From positions 9,425-73,424 of the forward strand of contig CAYGBM010000035.1 in assembly GCA_964348225.1 (NCBI GenBank): a DNA stretch of 64,000 nucleotides, given 5' to 3'. Source of the stretch: an uncultured Candidatus Saccharibacteria bacterium (GTDB taxonomy: Bacteria; Patescibacteriota; Minisyncoccia; Minisyncoccales; CG1-02-41-26). The notes beneath the pieces were generated by a model. That model was not told the origin of the DNA and did no database searches. It worked only from the letters and a program-made list of their open reading frames with translations. A program made the translations under genes and the position numbers. Shown piece after piece: positions 14,810-59,390 of this stretch (position 1 is its first letter; each line of letters begins with the position of its first letter).

Positions 14810-14888
14810 ACTTTAAAATTTCTAATTTCTAAACAATTTTCAATAACCCAATTTCCAAACATAGCACTCGGCATAAATCTATTTTAAC

Positions 14889-20749: not shown

Positions 20750-20757
20750 AAAAATAA

Positions 20758-20875
20758 TCTAAAATCTAAAAATGAAAATCTAAAAACTACATCTAAAAAG
20801 TTAAATCATTTTTAGCCTCACAGTTTTTAGATCTTAATTGCAGTTTTTACTTTTTAGATTTAAATTTTTAGATTA
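20758..20875. repeat. long imperfect palindrome built from (atctaaaaa)n ... (tttttagat)n
   Basis: Four atctaaaa-type units, then their reverse complements, between holA start and mutM stop. Hairpin-forming intergenic element. Confidence 0.45.
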
Positions 20876-35224: not shown

Positions 35225-35330
35225 ACCCGCTCAAATTTTGTCCTAAAATCTCCAGCAACCCTATAATACCCAAAGGTTAGCGATTGACTAAAGTATAGTT
35301 ACAATATTCTAGGACAAAATTTGAGCGGGT
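35225..35330. repeat. 21-bp near-perfect inverted repeat (acccgctcaaattttgtccta / taggacaaaatttgagcgggt) enclosing a ~63-nt loop
   Basis: Directly observed, between pilB-like stop and ruvB start. Candidate structured RNA or MITE-like remnant. Confidence 0.4.
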
Positions 35331-35535: not shown

Positions 35536-36549
35536 ATGGGGCTTAAAAAAATACAAGACAATTTGGAAAAAGAAGATGCCCTAGACCTAACCCTCCGGCC
35601 TAGGACATGGAAAGACTATGTAGGACAAGACAAGGTTAAAGAAAATGTCAAAATTATCATTGAGGCAGCCAAACAGAGAGAAGAAACTGCTGAGCACTTG
35701 CTTTTTTATGGAAATCCCGGCCTTGGCAAAACAAGCATCTCTTATTTAGTGGCAAAGGAAATGGCTGCTGATATTAAAACAACCTCAGGTCCTGCGATTG
35801 AACGGGCTGGTGATTTGGCTGCCATTTTAACAAACCTTCAAGAAGGGGGCATTCTTTTTTGCGATGAAATACACAGGCTATCCCGCGTCATAGAAGAATA
35901 TTTGTACCCAGCAATGGAAGATTTTAAGCTGAACCTGATTTTGGGCAAGGGAGCCATGGCAAGAACAATGGAGCTGAAAATTCCCAGATTCACCCTGATT
36001 GGAGCTACAACCCGTTTAGCTTCTATCTCAAGCCCTCTCCGGTCAAGATTCGGAGCAGTCTTTGGGCTTAACTTTTATAGTGTTGAAGATATTGAAAAAA
36101 TCCTTGAGAGGTCATCAAGAATTCTAAAAATCGCAGCAGACAAGCAAGCTTTAAAAATAATAGCAAAATGCTCCCGCTTTACCCCAAGAACCGCCAACCA
36201 CCTTTTAAAAAGGGTAAGAGACTTTGCCCAGGTCAAGGGAAAGGGTAAAATTACCCCATCAATAGCTCAAGAGGCGCTTGGCGCCTTAGAAATCGATGAA
36301 CTAGGCTTAACCTCAAATGACAGAATGGTTTTAGAAGCAATTGTCAAGAAGTTTGACGGTGGCCCGGTAGGCCTTCAAACTCTGGCTGCAGCGACCGCTG
36401 AAGAAGAAGAAACAATTCTTGACATCTACGAGCCCTACCTGATAAGAATCGGCTTTGTTGCCAGAACCCCTCGGGGCAGGGTAGCTACCAAGCACGCTTT
36501 TCAGCATCTCAAAACAAAACCCAAGGGTTCTCAAAAACCTCTTTTTTGA
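35536..36549 (+). CDS. ruvB: Holliday junction DNA helicase RuvB
   Basis: LRPRTWKDYVGQDKVKENV...LLFYGNPGLGKTS. AAA+ sensor motifs. C-terminal winged helix. Confidence 0.9.
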   Translation: MGLKKIQDNLEKEDALDLTLRPRTWKDYVGQDKVKENVKIIIEAAKQREETAEHLLFYGNPGLGKTSISYLVAKEMAADIKTTSGPAIERAGDLAAILTNLQEGGILFCDEIHRLSRVIEEYLYPAMEDFKLNLILGKGAMARTMELKIPRFTLIGATTRLASISSPLRSRFGAVFGLNFYSVEDIEKILERSSRILKIAADKQALKIIAKCSRFTPRTANHLLKRVRDFAQVKGKGKITPSIAQEALGALEIDELGLTSNDRMVLEAIVKKFDGGPVGLQTLAAATAEEEETILDIYEPYLIRIGFVARTPRGRVATKHAFQHLKTKPKGSQKPLF

Positions 36550-39522: not shown

Positions 39523-39635
39523 AGGTTTTGATTAGTTTGTTATTATATTATTATAACTATTATACTATTATAGCCAATCTTACAAACAAGGCAATATTTA
39601 TTTGCTCCTTAAAGAATGGGAAGAAATTCGATACA

Positions 39636-40344: not shown

Positions 40345-41100
40345 ATGTCAGGCCATAGTCACTGGGCAACAGTGAAAAGAAAAAAAGGGGCAGAGGATGA
40401 AAAAAGGGGAAAGATTTTTTCCAAGCTCTCGCGCATGATTTCGGTTGCAGCAAGAGAGGGGAGCAATCCGGAGATGAACCCCAAGCTAAAACAGGCACTT
40501 GAAGAAGCGAAACGTTTTAATATGCCAAAGGATAATATTGAGAAAGCTATTAAGCGGGGGGCTGGCGAGCTTGAGGGAGAACAGCTTGAAGAAGTAATGT
40601 ACGAAGCTATTGGTCCTGGGGGGATTAATATAATTCTTGAAGGCATCACTGATAATAAAAACAGAACCTTGGCTGAGGTAAAAAAAATTCTCCAAAGCCA
40701 CAATGCTAAGCTGGCTGATGAAGGCTCTGTAAAGTGGGCTTTTGAGCAAAAAGGAATAATCCTGATAAACCCATCCCTACCTGCTGAACAGACAGGTGAA
40801 GCTCAAATGTCAAAAGAAGAATTAGAGCTGAAAGTAATTGAGACTGGGGCTGAAGATATGCAGTGGCGGAAAATAGAAGATGAAGATTTTCTGGAGATAA
40901 CAACCTCTATTGAAGATTTGGAAAAGGTTAAAGAAAGCCTTAAAAACCAAGGGGTTAACATTGAGTCTTCCACTTTGGGCTGGGCCGCCAAAGAAGAGGT
41001 TGAGGTTTCAGAGGAACAAAGAAAAAAATGCGAGAAGCTTTTTGAAGATTTAGACGAGAACGAGGCAATACAGGAAATATACTCCAATTTAGCTAGCTAA
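40345..41100 (+). CDS. YebC/PmpR-family transcriptional regulator
   Basis: MSGHSHWATVKRKKGAEDEKRGKIFSKLSRMISVAAREG is the universal YebC N-terminus. Confidence 0.9.
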   Translation: MSGHSHWATVKRKKGAEDEKRGKIFSKLSRMISVAAREGSNPEMNPKLKQALEEAKRFNMPKDNIEKAIKRGAGELEGEQLEEVMYEAIGPGGINIILEGITDNKNRTLAEVKKILQSHNAKLADEGSVKWAFEQKGIILINPSLPAEQTGEAQMSKEELELKVIETGAEDMQWRKIEDEDFLEITTSIEDLEKVKESLKNQGVNIESSTLGWAAKEEVEVSEEQRKKCEKLFEDLDENEAIQEIYSNLAS

Positions 41101-41278
41101 ATTGGAGAAATTCCAATTTCCAAGAACCAATTTCCAATGAATTTTCAATGACCAAATTTTCAAACCGTTCACATTAACGGAGCGAAGTGTTTACACCGAA
41201 CGAAGTGAGGTGTTTGAAAATTAAATAATTGAAAATTGAGGTTTCATTGGAAATTGAAAATTGTAAATTGTAAATTAC
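41101..41278. repeat. ~175-bp hairpin-forming repeat element (aatttccaa / caattttcaa family), copy A
   Basis: Fills the yebC-ruvC gap. Nearly identical in reverse complement to 47834-48006, including cattgaaaattcattggaaattggttcttggaaattgga. Shorter relatives at ~13510-13600 and ~14825-14870. Confidence 0.7.
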
Positions 41279-41761
41279 GTGATTATCACAGGAATAGACC
41301 CAGGCACAGCAACTACAGGCTATGGCATTATCAGAAAAACAAAAAGGGGCTTAAGGTGCCTTGATTACGGTATAATCGCAACCAGCCCCAAGCTTTCCCC
41401 AGAGCAACGTTTGAGACAGCTGAACAATCAGCTCAATAAACTTCTCACAATACACAAACCAAAACTAATGGCTGTTGAGGCTGTGTTTTTTTTCAAAAAC
41501 CTGAAAACCGCTATGCCTGTTTCAGAAGCAAGAGGAGTGATACTTCTGGCTGCTGCTAAAAAGAAAATTAAAGTTCAGCAGTTAACGCCCCTGGAAGTAA
41601 AAATGGGTATCTGCGGGTATGGCAGGGCAGACAAAAAACAAATCCAAAAGATGATAAAAGAAATTTTAGGGCTGAAAGAAACCCCAAGACCTGATGATGC
41701 AGCAGATGCTTTGGCTGTGGCTGTGTGCTGCTCTATTAAAAATCGGAAGGTGAAGGCTTGA
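41279..41761 (+). CDS. ruvC: crossover junction endodeoxyribonuclease RuvC
   Basis: (M/V)IITGIDPGTATTGYGII N-terminus, GTG start. 160 aa. Confidence 0.85.
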   Translation: MIITGIDPGTATTGYGIIRKTKRGLRCLDYGIIATSPKLSPEQRLRQLNNQLNKLLTIHKPKLMAVEAVFFFKNLKTAMPVSEARGVILLAAAKKKIKVQQLTPLEVKMGICGYGRADKKQIQKMIKEILGLKETPRPDDAADALAVAVCCSIKNRKVKA

Positions 41762-41942
41762 CCCCCACACCAAACGAACTTATGGTGTGGGGGTTGACAA
41801 CCTCTTTGGAAAATGTACAATTTTGAGTAATACGAAGAAAAAGGTCATACTTTTTCCCTACCTTAACCTTAAGGGGAAAAAGCTCCGATAGAGCAAAAGC
41901 TTTCTTTACCCTGTCAGCCTTAGTTGGACAGGGTAAAACGGG

Positions 41943-42128
41943 GTGAATTCCATGCAACTTGAAGAGCAGATTTTAACCAAGCTATTATCTCAAGACGAAG
42001 ATGAAGACATGGCCCCAGAGGAGGAAGAGATGCCCGAGGAAGAGGAAGAAGAGGAAGAGGAAGAAGAGGGGGCTGACGTAGGCGGTGATGAAGACGAGGA
42101 TGAAGATGAGGATGAAGAAATAATCTAA
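41943..42128 (+). CDS. small extremely acidic protein encoded on a GAR/GAA-rich simple repeat
   Basis: MNSMQLEEQILTKLLSQDEDEDMAPEEEEMPEEEEEEEEEEEGADVGGDEDEDEDEDEEII. Codon repeat gaggaagaagaggaagag.... Could be a real acidic peptide or a simple-sequence artefact. Confidence 0.3.
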   Translation: MNSMQLEEQILTKLLSQDEDEDMAPEEEEMPEEEEEEEEEEEGADVGGDEDEDEDEDEEII

Positions 42129-42221
42129 CGATTTCTAAGAACAAAAACCGAGCACATTAAATATGTGCTCGGTTTTGAAATATGAAGAAAATTAGAGTAA
42201 TATAGGAGAGTAATCTATCAC

Positions 42222-44351
42222 ATGCCAAAGAGACAACGTCAAAGAATAACATACAAAAAAAAGAGAAAGGTATTGAGATTTCTTCTCAAGGCTTTTTTAG
42301 CTGGAATTTTTTGTATTGTGCTTTTGGGGGTAGGAACTTTTATATTTTTTCTGAAGGACTTGCCCAGGCCCGAGAAATTCGCTGAGGGCATTGTTCCCCA
42401 GTCAACAAAGCTCTATGATCGAGAAGGAAAGGTGCTTCTGTACGAAATTGCGGGAGAAGAAAAAAGAACGCTTGTTTCTCTGGAGGAAATCCCGAACTAT
42501 TTAAAATGGGCTGCGATTACAGCTGAAGACAGAAAGTTCTTTGAGCATCGCGGGCTGGATCTGAAAGCAATCGCCAGAGCAATCCTCTATGATTTAAAGA
42601 TACGCCAGCCCGCCCAGGGGGCTTCAACGATCTCTCAGCAGCTGATTCGTTCTTACTTCCTAACAAGAAAGAAAACCCTAAAAAGAAAAACCAGAGAAAT
42701 TATTTTAACCCTTGAGCTAGAACGCAGGTATCCAAAAGACCAAATTTTAGAGTGGTACTTTAACCTTATTCCTTTTGGTTCAAACCTATATGGAGTTGAA
42801 TCTGCCTCGCAGGCCTTCTTTAAGAAGCCGGTCTCGGAAATTTCTCTGGCAGAATCCGCCACCCTGGCAGCTTTAATTAGAGCCCCCTCGCTCTATTGGC
42901 CTTACGGTCCAAACCTAGACAGGCTCATGACAAGAAAAGAATTTATTTTAGAAGAGATGACGAAAGCAAATTTCATCACTAAAGAACAGGCGGAAGAAGC
43001 GAAAAAAGAAGAGATTCAGTTTTCTCAAAACCTCAATCCAATCGTAGCGCCCCATTTTGTTATGTTTGTTAAGGATTATTTGGAGCAGAAATACGGCAAA
43101 AGCTTTTTGGAAAGGGCGGGACTTCGCGTTATAACAACCCTGGATATAGAAATGCAGGAAAAAGCAGAAGAGCTTTTGAGGGAAGGGCTCAAGCAGGTGG
43201 AGGCCTACAATGCCAACAACGGGGGGCTGATAGCTGTCAACCCAAAAACAGGGGAGCTTTTGGTTATGGTCGGCTCAAAAGACTACTTTAGCAGCTCCTC
43301 TCCCGAGGGGTGCGACCCTGGAGTTGACTGCTTGTTTGACCCTGAGGTTAATGTTACAATAAGCCCCCGCCAGCCCGGAAGCGCCTTTAAGCCCTTTGCT
43401 TATGCAGCAGCTCTTGATAAGGGATTTACCCCCAATACATTGCTTTGGGACGTGCCTACTGAATTCAATCCTAACTGCTCCCCAAGCGCCACCCAAGAAT
43501 ACGACAAATACAAGGCAAAATGCTATCATCCGCAAAACTACGACGCAAGATTTAAAGGTATTGTAAGCCTAAGAAGCGCCTTGGCTCAATCCAGGAATGT
43601 GCCCTCGGTCAAGATTTTGCATCTAGCTGGGATTAACGAAACATTAGACTTGGCTGAGGATTTTGGAATCCAAACCCTGAAAGACAGACAACGTTATGGA
43701 CTTGCCTTAGTATTGGGGGGCGGGGAAGTGAAGCTCCTGGAAATGGTATCAGCCTTTGGAGTTTTTGCAAACGATGGGATAAAAACCCCTTTAAATATCA
43801 TCAAAGAAATAAAAGATCCCAAGGGCAATGTGCGTGAAGAAATAAAAAAGGATACGATTAAGGTCTTGTCATCGCAAATTGTAAGGCAAATAAACAATAT
43901 CCTGTCAGATAATGCTGCTCGCGCCCCAATGTTTGGCCTAAGCTCCCCCCTTTACTTTCCAGGCTTTGAGGTTGCTGCTAAAACCGGCACCACCCAAAAT
44001 TATAAGGACGCCTGGACTCTTGGCTACACGCCCTCTTTGGCAGTTGGGGTTTGGGTTGGCAACAACAATAACGAACCCATGGCAAAAAAGCCTGGGGTTT
44101 TCTTGTCCTCTCCAATTTGGCATACCTTTATGCTTTACGCCCTGCCAAATTTTCCAAAACAAGAGTTTAAAAAACCAGATGAAACCACGACCGGCAACCC
44201 GATTTTGGACGGACAGCAGGCTTTAGGAAGCCATTCTATTCTGCATTTTGTAGACAAAAAAAATCCCCAGGGCCCACGTCCGACTAGCCCTGGAAACGAT
44301 GCCCAATACGAAAATTGGGAGGCTGCTGTTTCAAGGTGGCTGGGATTTTAG
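42222..44351 (+). CDS. bifunctional class A penicillin-binding protein (glycosyltransferase + transpeptidase)
   Basis: GT51 motifs AAITAEDRKFFEHRGLD and RQPAQGASTISQQL. TPase motifs SAFKPF, SRN, KTGTT. N-terminal TM. Confidence 0.9.
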   Translation: MPKRQRQRITYKKKRKVLRFLLKAFLAGIFCIVLLGVGTFIFFLKDLPRPEKFAEGIVPQSTKLYDREGKVLLYEIAGEEKRTLVSLEEIPNYLKWAAITAEDRKFFEHRGLDLKAIARAILYDLKIRQPAQGASTISQQLIRSYFLTRKKTLKRKTREIILTLELERRYPKDQILEWYFNLIPFGSNLYGVESASQAFFKKPVSEISLAESATLAALIRAPSLYWPYGPNLDRLMTRKEFILEEMTKANFITKEQAEEAKKEEIQFSQNLNPIVAPHFVMFVKDYLEQKYGKSFLERAGLRVITTLDIEMQEKAEELLREGLKQVEAYNANNGGLIAVNPKTGELLVMVGSKDYFSSSSPEGCDPGVDCLFDPEVNVTISPRQPGSAFKPFAYAAALDKGFTPNTLLWDVPTEFNPNCSPSATQEYDKYKAKCYHPQNYDARFKGIVSLRSALAQSRNVPSVKILHLAGINETLDLAEDFGIQTLKDRQRYGLALVLGGGEVKLLEMVSAFGVFANDGIKTPLNIIKEIKDPKGNVREEIKKDTIKVLSSQIVRQINNILSDNAARAPMFGLSSPLYFPGFEVAAKTGTTQNYKDAWTLGYTPSLAVGVWVGNNNNEPMAKKPGVFLSSPIWHTFMLYALPNFPKQEFKKPDETTTGNPILDGQQALGSHSILHFVDKKNPQGPRPTSPGNDAQYENWEAAVSRWLGF

Positions 44352-44356
44352 CAAAA

Positions 44357-45481
44357 TTAGCTCGCCTTGATCGGCATCAAGATATAAATATAGCTTTCAT
44401 CGCCAACCGGCTTTAAAACTCCAGCTCCCTCTTCTCCATTAAGCTCAAAGACAACCTCTGAGCTTTTTATGTTATTGAAGCCATCAAGTAAAAATCTGTA
44501 ATTGAAGGAAATTTCAACCCTCTCTCCTTCTATCTTAGATGACAATTCAGATTCGCTCTGACCCGTCTCTATGCTCTGGGAAAACACTTTTAACTTATTG
44601 TCTTTAGGTAGGGCTGTTATTTTAACCTCTAAAACCTTGCCGCTAAAAAGCCCTGCTTTTTTGATTTGGTTTTCAAAACTTTCTTTCTCAACCTGAATCT
44701 TGGTTGTATGCTTTTTGGGAATAATTTCTTGGTAATTAGGGTATTCTCCTTCAATTAAACGAGATAGCAGATTTATTTGAGGATGAGAGGTCTCTTCTTT
44801 TAGAAGTTCAAAAAGCACCTGGTTCTGGTTTAAAAAAATATTAGCCTTGCCCTCTTCTTGACTTAAGATATTAAACAACTCTCTCGCAGAAGACTGAGGG
44901 AGAATAAAAGAGCCTTCTTTTTGTCCTGTGTCCTCCAGGTCAATTGTCTTCTCTGCTAACCTAAAACTGTCAGTGCCAACCATCTTTAATATTTTCTTTT
45001 TGAGGTAAAAATAGACCCCTGAGATTTCTGGCCTCACCTGTGAAGAAGAGGTAACATCAATAACCTGGCCCAGCCCCTCAGCAACCTTGTGGATAGGGAT
45101 CTGCCAAGAAACTTCTCTTTCTATTTTTGGAATTACTGGAAAGTCTTCTGGTTTCTGTCCCTGAATTCTGGTTCTTTGATTTTTAGTGGTTAAAACCAAG
45201 TTACCGTTCTCCTCACTCAGCCCTATTTTCTCCTCATTTATCAAATTAACTAAGTTAGCTAAAAAGGTGGCTGGAACTACTAATTTTCCCTTCTTTTCAA
45301 TTTTAGCTAATATCCACCAACGAATTGTAGTTTCTAGATTTGTTGTATTCAGCTCTAAAAAATTTCCCTTGGTTTCCATTAGAACATTTTGCAACACTGG
45401 AAGGTTCAATGTCTTTCGGGTAATCTTCTCGCAATTGTTAATCGCTTTTTTAAGGTTTTCTGTAAGTAATTCGACTTTCAT
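44357..45481 (-). CDS. dnaN: DNA polymerase III beta sliding clamp
   Basis: 374 aa. MKVELLTENLKKAIN start. Three-domain clamp length. Sits next to dnaA. Confidence 0.85.
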   Translation of the reverse strand: MKVELLTENLKKAINNCEKITRKTLNLPVLQNVLMETKGNFLELNTTNLETTIRWWILAKIEKKGKLVVPATFLANLVNLINEEKIGLSEENGNLVLTTKNQRTRIQGQKPEDFPVIPKIEREVSWQIPIHKVAEGLGQVIDVTSSSQVRPEISGVYFYLKKKILKMVGTDSFRLAEKTIDLEDTGQKEGSFILPQSSARELFNILSQEEGKANIFLNQNQVLFELLKEETSHPQINLLSRLIEGEYPNYQEIIPKKHTTKIQVEKESFENQIKKAGLFSGKVLEVKITALPKDNKLKVFSQSIETGQSESELSSKIEGERVEISFNYRFLLDGFNNIKSSEVVFELNGEEGAGVLKPVGDESYIYILMPIKAS

Positions 45482-45791
45482 ATTTTTGGGGTCCGCGAAC
45501 GTTTCACAAATATTCTTCCTTGGGATATATGTGAAAAAATTCGCTTTCCTTAATAATAACTTTAATAACTAATTATTATTGTTGTTGTTGTTGTTGAGAT
45601 ACAAAGAAACTGGGGAAAATAATCTTTTGGTTTGGTTTTTTAACAAGAATCCTTTATTGCTTTTGTTAAAAATATGTGGAGGGTTGTTGGAGGAAGTTTT
45701 GGAAAATTCTGGAGAGGGGAGAGTTTTAAAGTTTTGATGTGTTTTTCTTCACAGAATAATAAATATTTTTCAGCTCGTTTTCCACAGATAG
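45482..45791. other. dnaA-dnaN intergenic region; candidate oriC component
   Basis: DnaA-box-like 9-mers (ttttccaca at ~45778, tgtggaggg, ttcttcaca). AT-rich (att)3(gtt)5 microsatellite at 45572-45596. Confidence 0.3.
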
Positions 45792-47153
45792 TTAGATCTT
45801 ATCATACAGCCTTTGACGTATTAAATTAATCTCAGTGAGCAAAGAATCGTCCTCTTCTATTTGTTTGGAGATTTTTTCGTAAGCGTAGATAGCCGTTGTG
45901 TGGTCTTTGCCTTCAAACTTTCGACCGATTGAAGGATAAGACTCTTGTAATTCCTGTCTTAGGAGATACATAGCTATTTGTCTTGGCCTGACGATTTCTT
46001 TTCTTCTTGTGGGCAAGAAAAGGTCTTCTCGATTTAGGTCATAAAAAGAAGCTACAACCTGAATAATTTTCTTAGAATTTGTAGCCTTCTTGGGCGAGGC
46101 AATTAAATTTCTTAAAAGTTTTTTTACCACAGTCAATTCTGGGCTTTTTTGGTTGAGTTTCTGGAAAACAATTAAGCGATTTAAGGCTCCCTCCATATCC
46201 CTGATATTCCTTTGGATGTTTGTTGCAATATACTCCAGTATTTCAGAGCCAAGCTTAATGTCTTTTTCGCTGCACTTAGATTTTAAAATCGCAATTCGTG
46301 TTTCAATATCAGGTGCCCCAATGTCCGCCATCATTCCACCTTCAAACCTTGACCTCAATCTTTCTTCAATAGCTGGAATTGCATTGGGAGGACGGTCGGA
46401 GGAGAGAATAATCTGTTTTTGGGCCTGGTAAAGAGTATTGAAAATATGGAAGAACTCCTCTTGGGTTTTCTCTTTCCCAGCAAAGAATTGGACATCATCC
46501 ATAATCAGCACGTCAATTTTACAGAGCTCTTTTTTTAGGTTTTCAATTTCTTGATTTCTGATTGATTCAACAATTTTTGAAATAAATCTTTCTGAGGTCG
46601 TATATTTAACCACGCTTTTCTGGGGAAACAAGCCAGCAACGCGGTTGCCTGTTGCCTGGAGAAGATGTGTTTTTCCCAGGCCAACTCCTCCATAAATAAA
46701 CAAAGGATTGTAAACAACCCCTGGCTTCTCAGAAACCGCCCAAGCGGCTGCATGAGCTAATTCATTAAAGCCGCCAACCACGAAATTATCGAAAGTATAG
46801 CGAGAGTTTAGGTTGGTTTTTTGGTTAACCTTGAACTCCTGGAATTGGAGCTGGGGCTCTGAAACAGTTTCTTGGTGCTTTGTCTTTGGTTTGGGTGCTG
46901 GTACGTTTTGAGTTTTTACAATAAAGTCAACCAGGCGGATATTTTTATCTAGCGACCTCAAGATTTTCAAAATAAGGGACTGGTATTTAGAGCTCAGCCA
47001 TTCTTTTGAAAAAGAATTTGGCACAGAGATTGAAATTACCCCGTTTTTATTAGAGATAATTTTAGTGCTGCAAAACCAGGTAGCAAAGTTAGCTCTGGAT
47101 ACAACAAATTGTAGCTGGGCTAAAACTGATTGCCAGAGTTCTTCGTTGCTCAT
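45792..47153 (-). CDS. dnaA: chromosomal replication initiator DnaA
   Basis: AAA+ GGVGLGKTHLLQATGN. Sensor motifs. C-terminal DNA-binding domain (KDHTTAIYAYEKI). Confidence 0.9.
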   Translation of the reverse strand: MSNEELWQSVLAQLQFVVSRANFATWFCSTKIISNKNGVISISVPNSFSKEWLSSKYQSLILKILRSLDKNIRLVDFIVKTQNVPAPKPKTKHQETVSEPQLQFQEFKVNQKTNLNSRYTFDNFVVGGFNELAHAAAWAVSEKPGVVYNPLFIYGGVGLGKTHLLQATGNRVAGLFPQKSVVKYTTSERFISKIVESIRNQEIENLKKELCKIDVLIMDDVQFFAGKEKTQEEFFHIFNTLYQAQKQIILSSDRPPNAIPAIEERLRSRFEGGMMADIGAPDIETRIAILKSKCSEKDIKLGSEILEYIATNIQRNIRDMEGALNRLIVFQKLNQKSPELTVVKKLLRNLIASPKKATNSKKIIQVVASFYDLNREDLFLPTRRKEIVRPRQIAMYLLRQELQESYPSIGRKFEGKDHTTAIYAYEKISKQIEEDDSLLTEINLIRQRLYDKI

Positions 47154-47454
47154 AGTAGAAGTTTTTTAAAATTTTTCTTGGGAAAAATTTAGCTAGTTTA
47201 ATACTATATTATCAACCTATCAATATCATATTACAAGCCTGCTTTAAAATCAATAAAAAATTGCTCTTTGTGGGAAACTTGAGGATAACCTGTGTAAAAT
47301 CTAAAGAAGTTATTAAAACTTTTTTTCCAGATATTACATTTTTTTCTTTCTTTACCTAATCTGAAAAAAATACAAAAGTTTTTCAGCGACACCAGCTTTT
47401 CTCTTAGCTCAAAACAGCAAGCCTGGCAGGTAATCGAAGAAGCGAAAATTTCTT

Positions 47455-47483
47455 TTGGTATTTTATTATTAATCTGGTATACT
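47455..47483 (+). promoter_or_regulatory. sigma70-like promoter (TTGGTA-17 bp-TATACT) reading toward rpmH
   Basis: -35 at 47455-47460, -10 at 47478-47483. About 215 nt upstream of the rpmH ATG. Confidence 0.4.
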
Positions 47484-47489
47484 AAAGAA

Positions 47490-47698
47490 TCCGTTAGCGA
47501 CCCTTCACCCGAGGCTTTGGGTGAAGAGGAGCTTACGAAGGCTTTATCCGCCGAAACGCAGTGTAGGCGGATACATGGAATACAAGAATTACCCGACCAC
47601 CCTCCTTTACTTCGTTTCGGAGGGTGTAAGAACTCGTAAATTCACCCTATACCAAATTTGCTATACAAATTTGGTCGGGTTCATTAACGATTTCCAAC
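47490..47698 (+). ncRNA. highly structured ~200-nt rpmH leader / candidate cis-regulatory or small RNA
   Basis: Multiple nested inverted repeats: cttcaccc-gaggcttt-gggtgaag; atccgcc...ggcggat; accctcc...ggagggt; accaaattt-gctatac-aaatttggt. Long-range acccgacc (47591) pairs with ggtcgggt (47673). No match to RNase P, SRP or tmRNA consensus. Confidence 0.3.
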
Positions 47699-47833
47699 AT
47701 GAGCGTTACTTATAAACCAAAAAAGAAAAAGCGGAAGAGGGTCCACGGTTTTTTAAAAAGAATGAGGACAAAAAGTGGCAGAAGGATTGTTGCTCAGAGA
47801 AGAAGAAAAAAAAGGAAGAGAATTTCAGTTTAG
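47699..47833 (+). CDS. rpmH: 50S ribosomal protein L34
   Basis: [44 protein letters not shown]. Not in ORF track (44 aa). Coordinates +-2. Confidence 0.85.
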
Positions 47834-48006
47834 AAAGCCTCGGTAAATTTTCAATTTACAATTTTCAATTTTCAATGAAATTCTAATTTTCAATTATTTA
47901 ATTTTCAAACACTTTACTTTGTTCAGTGTAAACGGTTTGAAAATTGGAAATTTAGACATTGAAAATTCATTGGAAATTGGTTCTTGGAAATTGGAAATTA
48001 TGTGAA
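47834..48006. repeat. ~175-bp hairpin-forming repeat element, copy B; inverted relative to copy A
   Basis: See copy A. Inserted between rpmH and rnpA, which are usually adjacent. Confidence 0.7.
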
Positions 48007-48357
48007 ATGCTGCCAAAGGCTCATCGTCTTAAAAAAGAGAAAGACTTCCAAGAAGTGATGAAGCAAGGAAGGACAGTAAGTAAAGCTTTTTTGATTTTAA
48101 AATTCAGGAAGAACGATTTAGCAGTAACAAGAATAGGCTTTGTGGTCAGCCAAAAGATTTCCAAGCGAGCAACCATAAGAAACAGGGTTAAGCGAAGATT
48201 AAAAGGTTTAGCAAGAAGCAGTTTGCCAAGGCTAAGGTCTGGTTATGACTTAATCTTTTTTACCAAGAAAGGAATCGAAGAAAAAAACTTCCGGGAGGTT
48301 GAAATAGCAGCAAAGAGCTTATTAGAAAAAGCCGGGCTGCTCATCGGTAAATCTTAA
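48007..48357 (+). CDS. rnpA: ribonuclease P protein component
   Basis: [24 protein letters not shown]...[13 protein letters not shown]. The track start at 47959 lies inside the repeat element and is rejected. Confidence 0.85.
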
Positions 48358-48370
48358 ATCTTTAATCTTA

Positions 48371-48592
48371 ATGACGCAGAAAATAACCCAAAAAATATTT
48401 TTAAAAGCTGTTAGGCTTTATCAACTTTTAATCTCTCCTTTGCTGGGACCGCGCTGTAAGTTTTATCCCTCTTGTTCTGAATACAGTATTTTGGCAATCA
48501 GAGAACATGGAATATTGAAGGGGATTGTTTTGTCTTGCTGGAGAATATTGCGATGCGCTCCCTGGAGTGAGGGAGGAGTAGATTTGCCGTAA
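48371..48592 (+). CDS. yidD: membrane protein insertion efficiency factor YidD
   Basis: [54 protein letters not shown]. Confidence 0.9.
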
Positions 48593-48593
48593 T

Positions 48594-48692
48594 TAAGAAT
48601 TAAAAATTAATAATTAAGAATTTAATTAAAAGTTAAAAGTTTTCGATTGTTGATGTAATTCTTAACTTTTAATTCTTAATTATTAATTTATT
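48594..48692. repeat. AT-rich palindromic element (aattaagaatt / aattcttaatt family), complete hairpin copy
   Basis: aattaagaattaaaaattaataattaagaatttaattaaaagttaaaag - loop - cttaacttttaattcttaattattaatt. Further copies at 50047-50168, and split around the 59449-59823 gene. Confidence 0.7.
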
Positions 48693-48695
48693 GTT

Positions 48696-49502
48696 GTGAA
48701 CCCTCTCATTAGATTTTTTACCATAATATTATATCAGCCACTCTTTAACCTTTTGATACTCATATATGTCTATTTTCCAGGGCATGATTTTGGAGTGGCG
48801 GTGATTCTTTTGACCCTAATTATCAGGCTAATTCTTCATCCTTTCTCCAGAAAGGCAATTGTTTCTCAAAAAGCATTGGGCTTGTTGCAGCCGAAGATTA
48901 AAGAGCTTCAGCAAAAGTATAAGAATGACAAAGCCCAACAAACAAAAGCAATAATGGAGTTGTACAAGAAAGAGAAGATTAGTCCTATGTCTGGCTGCTT
49001 TCCTATCCTCTTGCAGTTGCCCATTCTTATTGCCCTTTACCAGGTCTTCTTGAGGGGATTTGGGCCAGAAATTTTAAGCACTTATCTTTATGGCCCGGTG
49101 CCTAATCCCGGCGAATTCATCCCGACTTTTTTGGGAATTATTAATTTGGCTGAACCTAATTTAATTTTAGCAATACTGGCTGGGGCTTTACAGTTTTTTC
49201 AGTCGAAGATTTCAATGAAGATGCAGCAGGGTAAGAGGAAATCAGGCAAAAAAGACATTTCTTCAATGATGCAAAAGCAGATGTTGTATTTCTTGCCCCT
49301 TCTGACTGTTTTTCTTGTTTGGAGGTTTGGGGCGATTATCGGGCTTTATTGGGTGGTTAGCACCGCCTTTGCAATTGGAGAACATTATTTAGTAAAATTC
49401 AAAGCTCAAAACCCTTCGAAGCAGGGCAAGTCCACCAAGGGGCTGGCAAAAAGCGAGCTTAGTTCCGAGCCTAGTTCCAGGGAAACTACGTCTCAAAAGT
49501 AA
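48696..49502 (+). CDS. yidC: membrane protein insertase YidC (short form)
   Basis: 268 aa, 5 TM. Conserved LLQLPILIALYQVF and GLYWVVS segments. Confidence 0.85.
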   Translation: MNPLIRFFTIILYQPLFNLLILIYVYFPGHDFGVAVILLTLIIRLILHPFSRKAIVSQKALGLLQPKIKELQQKYKNDKAQQTKAIMELYKKEKISPMSGCFPILLQLPILIALYQVFLRGFGPEILSTYLYGPVPNPGEFIPTFLGIINLAEPNLILAILAGALQFFQSKISMKMQQGKRKSGKKDISSMMQKQMLYFLPLLTVFLVWRFGAIIGLYWVVSTAFAIGEHYLVKFKAQNPSKQGKSTKGLAKSELSSEPSSRETTSQK

Positions 49503-49985: not shown

Positions 49986-50046
49986 TTTCTGTTCCGGTTG
50001 ATTTGTGGTAGGATATAATAAGAGTTATTAGGGCTTTTAGTATTGA

Positions 50047-50168
50047 AACAAGGATTAATTAAGAATTAAAAATTAACAATTAAGAATTAAATTTAAAATT
50101 AAAAATTACAACCTCTTAAAAGAAATTCTTAATTAAATTTTTAACTTTTAATTCTTAATTTTTAATTC
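50047..50168. repeat. AT-rich palindromic element, second complete copy
   Basis: aattaagaattaaaaattaacaattaagaattaaatttaaaattaaaaatt - loop - attcttaattaaatttttaacttttaattcttaatttttaatt. Confidence 0.7.
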
Positions 50169-50295: not shown

Positions 50296-50634
50296 TTGGC
50301 TGTTTTGGGGGCTTTGGGGGTGGTGTTATTTCTTCTTTGGTATGTACTTCCAAAGATTATCTTCTTTGTGGTGGTTTTCTTTGTGCTGGCTTTATTTATG
50401 GTGCTTAACTTCCTGAAGATTGAGGGCCAGAAAGTTTATGAAATCTTAACGACCTCCTTTAGCTTCCTTTTTTCCAAGAGAAAATATCTTTGGCAGAAGA
50501 AAGAAGGGTTAAAACCCATAAAGGTTGTAAGAAAAAGAAAAAAAGAAAAAAAGAAAGAGGAAGCTCCCTTAAGACTTGCTCCAAAGAGCAGACTGGGGCA
50601 AATCAAGTCAAAAATAGAGCTTGGACCAAAATGA
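50296..50634 (+). CDS. VirB3-like small membrane protein (TTG start)
   Basis: 112 aa. Two N-terminal TM helices and a lysine-rich tail. Stop overlaps the start of the VirB4 N-domain ORF (ATGA). Position immediately upstream of VirB4 is typical of VirB3-like proteins. Confidence 0.45.
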   Translation: MAVLGALGVVLFLLWYVLPKIIFFVVVFFVLALFMVLNFLKIEGQKVYEILTTSFSFLFSKRKYLWQKKEGLKPIKVVRKRKKEKKKEEAPLRLAPKSRLGQIKSKIELGPK

Positions 50635-51266
50635 GACTAGCTGCCCAATCTTTTTTACAATTTGACCAGATTAGGGAAGGGGTAATTGTGCTGAAGAACA
50701 AAGCCTTGAGAGGGATCTTGATGGTGTCTTCGGTAAACTTTGAATTGAAGTCAGCAGAAGAACAAGACGCCATCATTTTTCAGTTCCAGAATTTTTTGAA
50801 TTCCTTAGACTTTTCCTGTCAAATCATCATTCAATCAAGAAGACTCAACATCACCGGCTATTTTGAGAAGTTAAAAGAGCTTGAACGAGGGCAAAAGAAT
50901 GAGCTGTTAAAAATCCAGACCATTGAGTACCGAAAGTTTGTGGAAAAACTGGTGGCTAAAGGAACCATCATGACAAAACAGTTTTTTGTTGTTGTGCCCT
51001 ATACCATAGGCGAAATGCGGGGTATAAAATCTACAACCCCCTTTAAAAAAGGCGTGAGCATGGCTTTGACTGAAGAGGTATTCCAAAGATGTAGAGATCA
51101 GCTTTACCAGCGGATGGAATTTGTGGGCATTGGCTTGAGAAGATCTGGGTTGGGGGTTGTGCCTCTGACCACTCCCGAGCTCATCGAACTCCTTTGGGGC
51201 TGGCACCATCCAAAAGAATCAGAGGTTGGCTATTACCCCGAGATTTTACCAGAGTTTATGAAGTAA
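50631..51266 (+). CDS. virB4: VirB4/TrbE-family ATPase, N-terminal domain encoded as a separate ORF
   Basis: Start at MRLAAQSF. The block LQFDQIREGVIVLKNKALRGILMVSSVNFELKSAEEQDAIIFQFQNFLNSL...QIIIQS is the hallmark N-terminus of Gram-positive-type VirB4 proteins (I-dG-I...NF-L-S-eEQ). Ends 2 nt before the ATPase ORF, in a different frame. Confidence 0.6.
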   Translation: MRLAAQSFLQFDQIREGVIVLKNKALRGILMVSSVNFELKSAEEQDAIIFQFQNFLNSLDFSCQIIIQSRRLNITGYFEKLKELERGQKNELLKIQTIEYRKFVEKLVAKGTIMTKQFFVVVPYTIGEMRGIKSTTPFKKGVSMALTEEVFQRCRDQLYQRMEFVGIGLRRSGLGVVPLTTPELIELLWGWHHPKESEVGYYPEILPEFMK

Positions 51267-51268
51267 TC

Positions 51269-53089
51269 ATGAAACTTCCCTCTTTTTTCAAAAAAGGAAA
51301 AATTATTGAAAAGCTGGAAATCCAACCAGCAGAGATCAAGGTAGAGGACATTATTGCCCCCTCTTCCATTGAGGTAAAGCAGAACTACATTAAGCTGGGC
51401 GAGAGGTTCTGCAAGTCGTTCTTTGTTTTCTCTTACCCAAGGTATCTCTCTGCTGGCTGGCTTTCCCCTGTTGTTAACCTGAATTATTCTCTTGATATCA
51501 GTTTGCACATCCACCCCGTTGACACCGGGGCTGTTTTGAAAAGGCTGCGCAAAAAACTCACTGAAATCCAAGCTGAACTCGGGGAGAGGCAGGAAAAGGG
51601 ACTAATCAGAGACCCAGCTTTGGAGACAGCCTACAAAGATATTGAGCAGCTAAGAGACGAGCTTCAAACAGCCAGAGAAAGGGTTTTTCGCTTAGGGCTT
51701 TACCTTACTGTTTATGGTGATGATGACAAAGAATTAAGAGCGGTTGAAAGCCTTATCAGGTCAATTTTTGAGGCAAGATTAATCTATGTTAAACCAACTC
51801 TAATGAGAGAGAAAAAGGGGTTTTTCTCAACCCTTCCCTATGGGCTGGACCAAATACTGGTTCACACCCCTATGAACACTGCCCCTCTCTCTAGCATGTT
51901 TCCCTTTGTTTCTCCAGACCTGAGCGCCAACGAGGGGATCCTTTATGGCTTGAATATGCACAACAGCTCAATGGTTTTGTTTGATAGGTTCAGCTTAGAG
52001 AACGCGAACATGGTCGCCTTCGCTAAGAGTGGAGCTGGCAAGTCGTATTTCTGCAAGCTGGAAGTGCTTCGTTATCTGATGCAAGACATCGGCGTCATTG
52101 TCATAGACCCGGAGAACGAGTATGAGTTCCTGTCTGATGCTGTTGGTGGGGCTTTCTTTAAAATATCTTTAACCTCTCCTCACCACTTAAACCCTTTTGA
52201 CTTACCACCCGTTGAAGACAGAACACCAGAAGACGTTATAAGAACGAATGTTATTAACCTGGTCGGACTTTTAAGAATAATGCTCGGGGGGCTGACCCCA
52301 ACAGAGGACGCCATAATTGATAGAGCCTTAACTGAAACGTATGCTGCCAAGGACATTACCCCGGACAGTGACCCTTCAACCTGGAAAGACAAAATCCCTA
52401 TAATGTCTGATTTTGAAGCAGTGCTTTCTGGTATGGAGGGGACAGAGTCTTTACTCAAAAGGGTGAGAAAGTTTACCAAGGGGAGTTATGCTGCTTTTTT
52501 TAACAGCCCTTCAAATGTTTCTTTAGACCAGAATCTTATTATATTCGGAATCCGCGACATGGAAGATGAGCTTCGTCCTATGGCAACCTTTATTATCTTG
52601 AGATACATCTGGAATCAAATCAGGTCGGTGATGAAAAAGAGGATTCTGCTGGTTGATGAAGCCTGGTGGTTGATGCAGACAGAGGACGGGGCTTCTTTCT
52701 TGTTTGGTATTTGCAAAAGAGCAAGGAAATACTGGCTGGGCGTTTCAACCATCACTCAGGATGTTTCAGACTTTATGGGGTCAGCCTACGGCAAGCCTAT
52801 TATTACCAACTCTTCTTTGCAGCTTTTAATGAAGCAAAGCCCAGCCACCATTGATGTTGTCCAAAAAACCTTTAATCTGACCGAGGGTGAAAAGAATACT
52901 CTTCTTCAATGCGATGTTGGGGAAGGCATCTTTATCGCTGGACAAAAAAGAGTGGCTTTAAAGGTTATTGCTTCTTACGCTGAAGACCAGTTTATAACAA
53001 GCTCGCCAGAAGAAGTGAAAAAAATTAAAGAAGCCAAAAAGAAAATGATTAAAGAAGGCTACGCCCCACCAAGAAGGGGCATGTCTTAG
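51269..53089 (+). CDS. virB4: VirB4/TrbE-family ATPase, ATPase portion
   Basis: Start at MKLPSFF. FVFSYPRYLSAGWL...LHIHPVD block. Walker A AFAKSGAGKSYF. Walker B RILLVDEAWWLM. C-terminal GICKRARKYWLGVSTITQDVSDF. Confidence 0.8.
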   Translation: MKLPSFFKKGKIIEKLEIQPAEIKVEDIIAPSSIEVKQNYIKLGERFCKSFFVFSYPRYLSAGWLSPVVNLNYSLDISLHIHPVDTGAVLKRLRKKLTEIQAELGERQEKGLIRDPALETAYKDIEQLRDELQTARERVFRLGLYLTVYGDDDKELRAVESLIRSIFEARLIYVKPTLMREKKGFFSTLPYGLDQILVHTPMNTAPLSSMFPFVSPDLSANEGILYGLNMHNSSMVLFDRFSLENANMVAFAKSGAGKSYFCKLEVLRYLMQDIGVIVIDPENEYEFLSDAVGGAFFKISLTSPHHLNPFDLPPVEDRTPEDVIRTNVINLVGLLRIMLGGLTPTEDAIIDRALTETYAAKDITPDSDPSTWKDKIPIMSDFEAVLSGMEGTESLLKRVRKFTKGSYAAFFNSPSNVSLDQNLIIFGIRDMEDELRPMATFIILRYIWNQIRSVMKKRILLVDEAWWLMQTEDGASFLFGICKRARKYWLGVSTITQDVSDFMGSAYGKPIITNSSLQLLMKQSPATIDVVQKTFNLTEGEKNTLLQCDVGEGIFIAGQKRVALKVIASYAEDQFITSSPEEVKKIKEAKKKMIKEGYAPPRRGMS

Positions 53090-53100
53090 TTACTGTTTTA

Positions 53101-56100
53101 ATGCGGCTCACAAATAGCAAAAAGCTTCTCTTAGCTTTGTTGGCTGTTGGCATTTTATTTCAAGCAGGCGTTGTGTTAGCTTTGGAGTATGAATATCCCA
53201 GTCTGCCTGGCATTGGGGTTTTAAAAGAGGACCAGCCGCTCAGCTTTTACATCAAATATTTTGTCAATCTTTTCTTTTACATTGTTGCTGGAGCTTGCGT
53301 GGTGGTTATAATCTTTGGCGGGATTTTGCATATTATAGCTTCTCAAAAGCCTACCACCCTGGTTAAAGCCAGAGAATATATCAGACGAGGCCTTTTAGGT
53401 CTTTTAATTTTGCTCTGTTCTTTTTTGATTCTTTACACTATCAATCCCCAGCTTTTGCTTTTTAAAATAGACCTTGAAGAAGCAAAAATAGCCTTAGCCC
53501 CGGGCGAGAGAGAGCCTGAAGAGCCCAAAAAAGCAGGGTTTTTAGAAGTGATTCCTGGTGAGCTGGTAATGGATTCCCTCCAGTTTCTTCAGGGCAACGC
53601 TACTTTAAGTGAGGAGTTTGTCGGCGATTTCATCGCAGGCCCCGCTTTTCCAGAATATCCCCGTTTTGAAGTGTCTTTTCAAGAAGCCAAGATTTTAGCA
53701 GAGGCGCTAATTGAAAAAACCGAAATTCTGCATAATTCTTTTTGGGAATGCTGTAAGTGCGGCAATTCCTATGTTCATTATTATTTTGAGATGAAGCTGA
53801 GAGGCGCAGAATGCGGGTGCCTGAGCGGAAAAGATGAGATAATCATTGGAGGCAAAGATATAAATATCACAGACCTTGATACATGCGTTAAAGAAATAAG
53901 GGGCTGTCATAGGGAACGGATAGAATCGTGTAAGGCCTGTATAGCTGCAGGAGGAACTCACGATACCTGCTCGGGCTGTGATTTAGATGAAAACACAGCA
54001 GCCTGCGGTCAGCCAAGCGACTGTTGGGCTTGTAAGAATTTCTGCAGCCAGTGCGGGTGCAGTCCTTCCTGCTTGCGACAAAAAGGGTTAAGAGATAAAA
54101 ATGGCAACTTGGTTCCTTTTGGTGCTACCCCAAAAATGATTGATGAAATCATCAGCTATAGAAGGGATGAGATACTCGGGATTGTCAGCAAGGTTCGGGC
54201 TTTAAAAACAAAGGTGGCTGGGGTTCAGCTTACCTTGCACGACAAAGCCTTAAATGTTATCAAGGCTGCCTATATTATGCAGCATGGCGATGATTTCCTT
54301 TTTCAAACCGAGCTTGAGCAGATTAAAAGAGATTTTGAAAAAGGGCTTGTGTTTTTGAAAGATATATTAGCTCAGAGAAGGTTCACTAAGGAGGATGCTT
54401 CCTCGCAGAACATTTTAGCACAAGACAGCCCTGATGATTTTGAAGATGAGCCAGCAGACGATAGTTTGTTTAATGTTGAATTTCTAGTTCAAACATACCC
54501 GAACTGGTTAGCCACTAAAGAAAAGGTTTTAGAGACTAGGGAAAGCTCAAGTTATTTCACTTTCTATATTCCCATCACAGATGAAATCGGCATTTTTCTC
54601 CGCCAAACCTTAAAGCATAACGAGAAAATAAAACAAGAGGCTGAAGCCTCAAGCCTGTATTTGGTTATTGCTGGTTTAACCCCTCAAGAGTTCCAAGCCC
54701 TGATTGCTGAATGCTTCAGAGGGGCTTTTGGCAATGTGGAGCTTGAAACAATATTTACCAAGCAGGAAATGGAAGAGCTCTTTGATATGGTGATGAGTCT
54801 GGGAATAAGCGAAGGCTTGGGGCAGACAGCCCTTGTTAATATTGACTCTGGCAAAATAAGAGAGGAGATTATTAAAGGCATGGAAGAAGAAACAAAAGAC
54901 AGGCTTCGTGAGAAAGCAGCTGTTTCAGCAGCGGTGATGAAGTGCCTGATTGACTATTGCGGTGGGCCAGCAGGGGTCAGCAGAATGAGCGCCTGCGCTG
55001 CTTGTTCAGCTGGTGAGCCTTTGGGTTGTGGTCGGTGCGCCTGCGGTGCAGACATCACCCAAGAAAAGGTTGGAGAGTGGCAAAGCAAATGCGAAAACGA
55101 TATACCAGCTGATTTTATTTCAAGACAGTTGATTAAATTTGTCACAACAGATGTCCAGGCTTTATTGCCAGACTCCATTGAAAAACTGCTTAAAAGCAAA
55201 GTGGAAGAGGTTATTTTTGATAAAGACCTCAGGGAGTTTTACTTAGATAAAAGCCTGCTTGAACTTTTGCAGAGAGGGGCTGGCGGCATTGCTGAAAACG
55301 TTATCCAGGAGGAATTTCCTGAAATCATTAAGCTTTTACAGACCCAGCTTATTACCTTGTTGCCTAATGCTGTTGGCAACCAGTTGGGTAAGGTTGACCA
55401 GTGGCTTACCGACTACTTTGACAAATACGAAGAAATAGTCAACAAACAAATTGATGAATGGGTCGCCTGGCTCACCGGCAAAATTACCGGCTGGATAGAA
55501 GAGAAATTCGGCTCTAAAAAATACGCTGAAGAGGTGCTCAAAACACTTAAAGAAACTGACGCTTTAGCTGTTGAAGACTTTCTTGACAAGTACGCTACTT
55601 ATGAGGAGGTGGTGCTTCAAGGCACTGGAACCCCTTGTTGTGAGGACAAAGATTGTCCTGCTGCTTTGGGGCCAGGCGGAGGGGATCTTGACCAGGAAAA
55701 TCAGTGTAGGGAGGCAACTTCAAAGTGCGATTCTTCAGCACCCGATGGCGAGTGCAAGTTAGTAGAGAAAAAAAGAGGCATTACTTCAAAACAAGATTTT
55801 GTTGAGCACTGCAAAGAAGAATTAGCCAAGTCTGCAGCTCCCGACCAGACCTTGGCTGACATAAGGGTAGCTTGCGAAGGCCCTATGTGGGATAGCGTGG
55901 CTGATGTTGTTGAAAAAGAAAGAGACAGGCAGGTGGTTGAAGCAGTAACCGACCTTGATACCTACACAGATATGCTTAAGGAGTGGGGCGGTGAATTTAA
56001 AAATGTGATGGTAAGTCAGTTCAAGGCATTGCCTGGCCAGTTCTTGGCAGCTGTTGTTGAGATTTCCATTCAAACAGCAGTTGAGTATGTAAGGGTTTGG

Positions 56101-59388: not shown

Positions 59389-59390
59389 CT

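Follow-up and report, generated by a model that had tools for sequence, protein, structure and literature searches.

The window analysed here is a stretch of 64,000 nt of contig CAYGBM010000035.1 (assembly GCA_964348225.1) from an uncultured Candidatus Saccharibacteria bacterium. It contains two palindromic sequences, termed elements A and B, which lie in opposite orientations on either side of a segment carrying ruvC, PBP1A, dnaN, dnaA and rpmH (Table 1). Pfam matches agree with the names given to these five genes and to the flanking yebC and rnpA in an earlier note on this DNA, which had been made from the letters alone. Both elements are fitted closely between coding regions. Element A extends from 1-8 nt past the stop codon of yebC to 2 nt before the GTG start codon of ruvC, and element B extends from 13 nt past the stop codon of rpmH to 7 nt before the ATG of rnpA.

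According to the earlier note, A and B are reverse complements over most of their length and share a 40-mer, a claim that would fall if the resemblance were only low-complexity, AT-rich similarity. The alignment bears the description out. Positions 41108-41276 of A match the reverse complement of 47846-47999 in B with 80.5% identity over 169 nt (blastn, E 2e-42), and the longest word common to A and the reversed B is 40 nt. The similarity includes two ungapped blocks, one of 88 nt with 89% identity (41189-41276 and 47846-47933) and one of 56 nt with 93% identity (41108-41163 and 47944-47999), and the centre of A holds 15 extra nt relative to B. The Smith-Waterman score of the inverted alignment is 189, as opposed to just 60 in direct orientation. 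Dinucleotide shuffles of B give a mean score of 22.6 and a maximum of 35, and shuffles of 7-nt blocks, which leave the repeat units intact, reach at most 57. Because the observed score far exceeds these controls, the pair is a specific repeat and not a product of AT-rich low complexity.

Both elements do have arms made of short, AT-rich tandem units and are situated close to dnaA, which might suggest either simple low complexity or protein-binding repeats of the replication origin, such as DnaA boxes or an unwinding element. Such an explanation is highly improbable, since the score withstands unit-preserving shuffles, the non-repetitive centres align as well, and the family to which A and B belong is found far from any dnaA in many genomes. 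Moreover, matches to the DnaA box TTATCCACA with at most one mismatch number 16 in comparison with 13.6 expected, and no cluster of them occurs near dnaA. As DnaA boxes are neither enriched nor clustered, the idea that the arrays serve in origin binding was abandoned. The cumulative GC skew has a broad minimum at 32-46 kb of the window. The placement of oriC inside the bracketed segment is based on gene context and on this minimum and is not verified.

As had been supposed, A and B both form long imperfect hairpins when folded, with a minimum free energy (MFE) of -46.9 kcal/mol for A (z -4.4) and -46.4 kcal/mol for B (z -5.4). Tandem Repeats Finder resolves the arms into units with a period of 7, namely 4 copies of TTCCAAT and 9.3 copies of TTGAAAA in A, and 9.3 copies of AATTTTC and 4.4 copies of ATTGGAA in B. 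In these elements, whose family is here called F1, the 5' arm on either strand is composed of the unit AATTTYC and the 3' arm of the complementary unit. The arms of A and B are 56-72 nt long and 71-74% complementary, thus possessing the extended stem-loop that also characterizes intervening sequences (IVSs), with the limit that arms made of heptamers fit one another in more than one register, which renders alignments ambiguous and pair counts untrustworthy. The centre is short, less AT-rich and asymmetric, and its asymmetry sets the orientation, with A termed "plus" and B "minus". A scan of A and B for promoters and terminators revealed no convincing promoter of ruvC or rnpA and no terminator; the TTGAAA units of the arms yield many -35-like hexamers. 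Directly before A, the yebC stop codon is spanned by a palindrome of 11 bp without mismatch, whose loop measures 4 nt (CTCCAATTTAGCTAGCTAAATTGGAG, 41082-41107).

Table 1. Repeat elements and neighbouring genes in the 64,000-nt window (ORF, open reading frame; F1 to F3, heptamer-arm families; PF05635, Pfam family of the encoded protein; L numbers, comparison loci).
Feature	Position	Strand	Details
Element A, ORF-less F1 hairpin element	41101-41278	+	Period-7 arrays 41111-41138 and 41214-41276
Parts of element A			5' arm 41108-41163; centre 41164-41220; 3' arm 41221-41276
Remnant ORF in A	41148-41177	+	Nine codons, ATG to TAA, MTKFSNRSH*; resembles the L062 start MTEFSN
Shared 40-mer, copy in A	41111-41150	+	Sole long perfect identity; the L001 crossover falls inside it
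Element B, F1, opposite orientation to A	47834-48006	-	Period-7 arrays 47846-47908 and 47969-47999
Arms of element B			47846-47917 and 47928-47999
Shared 40-mer, partner copy in B	47957-47996	-	Reverse complement of 41111-41150
Full-length F2 element	59390-59876	+	Arms 59391-59477 and 59790-59876 enclose the PF05635 gene 59449-59823
F2 hairpin (heptamer AATTAAG)	48590-48688	+	Fills the yidD-yidC gap; 5' arm 96% identical to the 5' arm of the 59390 element
F2 hairpin downstream of jag	50057-50168	+	
F3 hairpin (heptamer AATCTAA)	20750-20880	+	Fills a 123-nt gap between two minus-strand genes
One-arm F1 array in murE, in frame	13518-13579	-	8.6 heptamers; encodes ELKIEKLKIDWKLKIE(NWKF)
Partial one-arm F1 copy	14817-14860 (approx.)	+	In the divergent ruvA/uvrB spacer
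Bracketed segment between A and B	41279-47833		Pfam; order and orientation as in relatives
yebC	40345-41100		Stop codon 41098-41100; Pfam
ruvC	41279-41761	+	GTG start at 41279; Pfam
PBP1A	42222-44351	+	Pfam
dnaN	44357-45481	-	Pfam
dnaA	45792-47153	-	Pfam
rpmH	47699-47833	+	Stop codon 47831-47833; Pfam
rnpA	48007-48357		ATG at 48007; Pfam; followed by yidD, yidC, jag

The corresponding region was compared in 80 related loci, obtained by a DnaA-based scan of metagenome contigs with 51-78% DnaA identity. Relatives with enough sequence share the gene order of the window (jag-yidC-yidD-rnpA-rpmH / dnaA-dnaN / PBP1A-(...)-ruvC-yebC), with small local differences elsewhere in the block in L186 and L173. 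In relatives, the median gap is 8.5 nt between rpmH and rnpA (n = 46) and 11 nt between yebC and ruvC (n = 13), while the closest relative having both junctions, L122, shows gaps of ~4 and 5 nt. The earlier observation that A fills the yebC-ruvC gap and B a normally tight rpmH-rnpA junction is thereby confirmed. Because the junctions measure only ~8-11 nt in relatives, this comparison indicates that A and B are insertions into normally tight junctions. Other heptamer families occupy the rpmH-rnpA junction in L127-129, L198 and L160, and the yebC-ruvC junction in L160 and L136. The element at the rpmH-rnpA junction of L160 is 246 nt long (8983-9228) and has at its centre a ~77-nt unit duplicated in tandem (TATATATTGCGTCGCTCGGTCGGCATAGGAATAT...); a related palindrome lies at 15388-15502 of the same locus. 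In the window, a small TAAATCT array of 3.4 copies (48348-48371) is located at the stop codon of rnpA and the start of yidD and may be the stub of another element.

A and B are not the only elements of this design in the window. A hairpin finder detected seven long hairpins, as opposed to none in five composition-matched shuffles, and those of the families F2 and F3 are listed in Table 1; F3 has the same architecture as F1 and F2, with a different unit. The shorter relatives that had been noted at ~14825 and in murE are both real, but each is a one-arm array and neither folds as a hairpin. Two further tandem arrays, AGTTTGT with 4.6 copies and 96% identity (32449-32480, inside the span of an ORF call) and TATTATAC with 3.9 copies (39541-39572), were also observed.

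Beyond the window, the F1 core, represented by the 21-mer AATTTCCAATNAATTTTCAAT, was searched for in one genome per bacterial or archaeal species. It was found in at least 119 stretches of these species-representative genomes, mostly from Patescibacteria (the Candidate Phyla Radiation, CPR). Among the 122 matches listed, 89 belong to metagenome-assembled genomes (MAGs) labelled as Patescibacteria or CPR, from many classes, with the caveat that mis-binned contigs may be among those so labelled, and 84 of the 122 lie within further heptamer units. The usual context elsewhere, among the matches listed, is an intergenic hairpin abutting the stop codon of one gene and the start codon of the next. 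Near relatives carry few copies, since the core with at most two mismatches occurs in 3 of the 80 origin loci as opposed to four times in the 64-kb window. Such patchiness, together with the repeated occupation of permissive junctions and the turnover of families, is what a mobile, selfish repeat would give. The suggestion that A and B are members of a dispersed family resembling miniature inverted-repeat transposable elements (MITEs) is thus supported and can be extended to a heptamer-built family that includes ORF-less counterparts of longer, PF05635-encoding elements. A and B share with MITEs terminal inverted repeats, small size, lack of coding capacity and multiple dispersed copies, the latter as surveyed for the host within the 64-kb window.

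The longer partners of the ORF-less hairpins encode a protein of the PF05635 family, the four-helix-bundle "23S rRNA intervening-sequence protein". In at least six loci (L003, L012, L017, L048, L062, and L101), the F1 core adjoins an ORF that matches PF05635 above the Pfam threshold. In five of the six, the ATG of the ORF is the ATG of the unit ...TTTTCAATGA, and in L003 the ORF lies in a nested inner element. The ORF of full-length F1 elements comprises ~120 codons; its ATG falls within the final unit of the 5' arm, and the 3' arm follows its stop codon. Residues 26-65 of A are 92-95% identical to the 5' ends of the PF05635-bearing F1 elements and residues 111-177 are 76-80% identical to their 3' ends, whereas B aligns with both ends on the opposite strand. 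Neither A nor B contains a PF05635 ORF, and their longest reading frames are remnants of 9 and 21 codons. As A and B are collinear with both ends of these elements, they are their ORF-less counterparts and are best regarded as derivatives that lack the gene.

F2 offers a parallel within the window itself, where ORF-bearing and ORF-less forms occur together. The ORF of the full-length F2 element matches PF05635 (5.9e-26), TIGR02436 ("four helix bundle protein") and PDB entry 2RLD, and the arms of the ORF-less F2 hairpins are 93-96% identical to those enclosing it. Two more PF05635 genes, in L164, have arms made of yet other units. At ~710-1400 of L003, three families are nested, with F1 arms outermost, CCAATGA-type arms inside and AAAGTTA-type arms around the central PF05635 gene. 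Because these families are nested, the arrangement suggests that hairpin loops may themselves be insertion targets.

Members of F1 also occur in frame within protein-coding genes. In the window, the murE array encodes ELKIEKLKIDWKLKIE directly ahead of the native (D/N)(W/Y)K.IKA segment, and the window MurE is ~10 residues longer at this point than solved MurE structures. The motif is present in the CPR orthologues P0002-P0005, P0016, P0024, and P0048, shorter or altered in P0006-P0008, and absent, with the flanks kept, from P0010, P0012, P0020, P0022, P0058, and P0078. Other murE loops with F1-like peptides occur in some orthologues, e.g., IFNFQFSI in P0004. At the DNA level, the array is 90-97% identical to that of the 70%-identical orthologue in L201, as opposed to 66% for the whole gene. 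A second case is a MiaB/RimO-like radical-SAM gene in L046 (~2120-2650), which contains one F1 arm in frame (KISNFQFSISNKF) and, ~290 nt beyond it, a whole in-frame F1 hairpin (ILNSQFSILNQ...NLKIETLKNSMEIENCKLKINN).

From these comparisons, A and B are probably two independent, oppositely oriented, ORF-less palindromic F1 insertions derived from PF05635-bearing elements. They would have kept both ends of the full-length element and lost the PF05635 gene. As insertions between genes that run in the same direction and are normally coupled, they would be co-transcribed with these genes and form an mRNA stem of ~60-70 bp. Such a stem, by closing on itself, would bring the upstream stop codon and the downstream start codon back within ~10-20 nt of each other, and the insertions would hence probably be tolerated, in analogy to IVSs of 23S rRNA, which do no more than lengthen a helix. 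By the same analogy, the stem is a likely substrate of RNase III. The inverted-repeat geometry around dnaA and dnaN would be a by-product, which offers homologous recombination a perfect target of 40 nt.

Several observations weigh against this interpretation. No known transposase is associated with the elements, and the sole product of the partner that shares their ends is the PF05635/TIGR02436 four-helix-bundle protein, which is not known to have transposase activity. No direct repeat is visible at the ends of A and B, and the nearest empty sites (74-78% DnaA identity) are too divergent to fix the insertion point. Many unit positions of the arms are mismatched and selection for RNA pairing is not demonstrated. 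A comparison of fold energies, by a crude method, favours the sense strand in 10 and the antisense strand in 8 of 18 F1 hairpins between co-directional genes. The similarity of the remnant ORF in A to the start of a PF05635 ORF is short (18 nt) and serves as supporting evidence only. Finally, among the matches listed, most core matches outside the CPR are isolated and look like chance.

The hairpins could alternatively be host regulatory structures rather than selfish insertions, acting as sites of mRNA processing or stability, as attenuators, or as devices for resetting translational coupling. Different heptamer families recur at the same junctions across relatives (rpmH-rnpA, yebC-ruvC, and yidD-yidC), the elements abut stop and start codons precisely, and the stems are very stable, all of which a regulatory role would accommodate. 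We nevertheless consider it unlikely, since most relatives lack a hairpin at these junctions, as their median gaps indicate, and the stability shows no sense-strand bias. In addition, the family is found in unrelated contexts, in either orientation, in frame in coding regions and around the PF05635 gene.

The earlier note further proposed that the pair is a substrate for inversion of the segment containing dnaA and dnaN. A junction of the kind that such an inversion would produce occurs in one public scaffold, L001 (GCA_012975005.1, JABAOC010040315.1, 4993 nt), which was found by searching for the exact RnpA protein. Nucleotides 1-28 of L001 correspond, in reverse complement, to the ruvC start; positions 1-197 reproduce the ruvC/A side in reverse complement without a difference, and from position 158 onward the sequence is identical to the B/rnpA side. 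L001 thus carries ruvC in reverse complement, an element and rnpA, which is the exact product of a crossover within the 40-mer. Inversion of the segment is possible but unproven. None of the 80 DnaA relatives places ruvC beside rnpA, and the loci that reach both junctions keep the order of the window.

The L001 contig itself calls for caution. It contains three runs of N, one of them on an F2 hairpin arm, and a neighbouring contig of the same assembly measures 2.6 kb. Compared with window positions 49988-50140, the near-identical L001 has at 2189-2260 one extra AATTCTT in the F2 3' arm and an N gap over the 5' arm, which indicates that unit copy number varies between close strains and that short-read coverage fails on hairpins. 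The reciprocal junction was not recovered, as exact-protein look-ups of ruvC, yebC, rpmH, dnaA and a 424-aa neighbour found nothing, and that of dnaN returned just the 2.6-kb contig, which ends short of both junctions. Because the assembly is fragmented, N-gapped and loses sequence on hairpin arms, a chimeric join is no less likely than a genuine inversion.

An active role of the pair, in which RecA-dependent exchange in the 40-mer flips the 6.5-kb segment and both isomers coexist in the population, would account for the L001 junction directly. It appears doubtful in view of the small contigs (2.6 and 5 kb) and N gaps of that assembly, where two coverage gaps at the 40-mer, or a de Bruijn path through it, would give the same join, and in view of the missing reciprocal junction and the uniform order in relatives (51-78% DnaA identity). 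A flip would also part rnpA-yidD-yidC from rpmH and its promoter, and the copies are 80% identical overall with just 40 nt uninterrupted. Active inversion is in any case compatible with the elements being dispersed repeats. Since ruvC, PBP1A, dnaN, dnaA, and rpmH are the only genes of the segment, and no invertase or integrase domain was found among them, the inverted repeats on either side of dnaA do not form a dedicated switch. With about eight such elements in 64 kb, two opposite copies 6.7 kb apart are not surprising, and the inverted geometry looks incidental.

Some further features of the window deserve mention. Upstream of the rpmH start lies a strongly structured stretch of 217 nt (47484-47700; MFE -79 kcal/mol, z -6.3), preceded by a promoter-like site, TTGGTA-17-TATACT, at 47455-47483. 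Rfam contains nothing that matches this stretch, and it is not repeated within the window or in the comparison loci examined. The spacer between dnaA and rpmH is 545 nt long in the window, as opposed to a median of 221 nt in relatives. In the 325-nt gap upstream of ruvB (35536-36549), a 25-nt inverted repeat with 96% complementarity and a 56-nt loop (ACCCGCTCAAATTTTGTCCTAAAAT; 35225-35330) is single-copy and not built of heptamers. Genes resembling those of a type IV secretion system (T4SS) are located at 12262-12795 and 50296-59388, the latter including a TraG/VirB4-like ATPase (51194-53089) and an ORF of 2095 aa without a Pfam match; a T4SS pilin domain match is weak and sub-threshold (25.6 bits as opposed to the 26.6-bit cut-off). 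The gene g50296 and TraG-like genes are found beyond jag in most relatives, usually on the opposite strand.

The inverted pair as such is fairly ordinary. In the literature searched, no paper contains the heptamer unit strings, none links the CPR with MITEs or palindromic elements, and the CPR literature has nothing on extra-ribosomal heptamer hairpins. The underlying family therefore looks new, and F1 is apparently undescribed in the searchable literature. The hairpins have practical consequences, as they break or scramble short-read CPR assemblies, one public scaffold joining ruvC to rnpA through them, and as they add peptide loops to conserved enzymes, which annotation should recognize.

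Several classes of bacterial repeats resemble F1 in part. The Correia or NEMIS elements of Neisseria and the enterobacterial repetitive intergenic consensus (ERIC) elements or intergenic repeat units (IRU) of enterobacteria are transcribed imperfect palindromes of 100-180 bp, and Correia hairpins are RNase III substrates. Like these, F1 elements are dispersed in intergenic regions of operons in either orientation and are probably co-transcribed. In contrast, there is no sequence relationship, F1 shows no visible TA or other target-site duplication, its arms consist of 7-nt tandem units, and its longer partner carries PF05635 and not a transposase. Rickettsia palindromic elements (RPEs) also insert in frame in protein genes and are kept as an extra peptide loop. 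The in-frame F1 copies in murE, in murE orthologues and in the MiaB-like gene of L046 are comparable, and the murE copy, as opposed to A and B, is likewise an in-frame repeat that is absent from some orthologues. RPEs belong to another phylum, differ in sequence, and have neither a heptamer architecture nor an ORF-bearing form. Among the elements of the REP/BIME type (BIME, bacterial interspersed mosaic element), which are associated with RAYT transposases, the repetitive extragenic palindromes (REPs) are 20-40 nt long, have a conserved tetranucleotide head and are linked to the RAYT gene of the HUH family. F1 shares with them the occurrence of short multicopy extragenic palindromes at gene ends in operons, whereas the REP size, the tetranucleotide head and the RAYT link are not seen for F1.

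Avd, the PF05635-like accessory protein of diversity-generating retroelements (PMC10053308), and the protein encoded in the full-length elements are members of one four-helix-bundle family. The window PF05635 gene was considered as part of such a cassette. Neither the seven ORFs downstream of it nor the upstream 2095-aa ORF matched any Pfam family, reverse transcriptases included; no search was made for a template/variable repeat pair. As no reverse transcriptase lies beside the gene, a diversity-generating retroelement cassette was rejected.

The closest likeness is to the IVSs of 23S rRNA. IVSs with an S23p/PF05635 ORF are described in Coxiella burnetii and Leptospira, where heptamer copy number varies between strains, the ORF tends to decay and the distribution is sporadic (PMC4990558). 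The Coxiella 23S IVS has a stem of terminal inverted repeats and tandem heptamers before the S23p start codon, and is excised by RNase III, as are the intervening sequences of Salmonella and Leptospira (PMC4990558; PMC11270868). The CPR literature describes PF05635 ORFs and short ORF-less insertions within rRNA genes. The elements studied here correspond to IVSs in their complementary termini with a long stem and, in the full-length form, in the heptamers directly before the ORF start and the PF05635 ORF in the loop. They also agree in variable unit copy number (one heptamer between the window F2 and L001), in the existence of ORF-less or decaying versions, and in a sporadic distribution that suggests horizontal spread. 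On the other hand, A and B lie between protein genes, and their relatives in coding regions, not in helix 9, 25, or 45 of 23S rRNA. F1 arms are much longer arrays (4-9 units) with many copies per genome, and cleavage of F1 hairpins by RNase III is proposed by analogy. Rfam gave no family at gathering thresholds over the window and only noise at E<=1 for 40900-48800, and a tRNA scan found none. Conserved rRNA motifs were absent from ~200 loci, and none of the F1 copies in the 119 listed loci is near conserved 16S or 23S motifs. Because A and B do not reside in 23S rRNA, they are not members of the IVSs, though they may well be IVS-like in their working.

It is conceivable, and proposed here tentatively, that the classical 23S rRNA IVSs are the rRNA-resident members of a larger class of PF05635-associated heptamer-arm hairpins, whose Patescibacteria members appear to reside mainly outside rRNA, with or without the ORF at operon junctions, nested in each other's loops (L003) and in frame within essential proteins. 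The pentameric PF05635 protein or the RNase III of the host might aid their spread or tolerance, and inverted copies might occasionally rearrange the chromosome, including its origin. The origin and mobility of 23S IVSs and the function of S23p/PF05635 constitute a question of some 30 years' standing, for which few comparable copies, all in rRNA, have been available. F1-type families have the same design in multi-copy form, with filled and empty sites in related genomes, ORF-less derivatives and in-frame copies, and thereby provide a comparative handle on the insertion, decay and tolerance of IVS-like elements.

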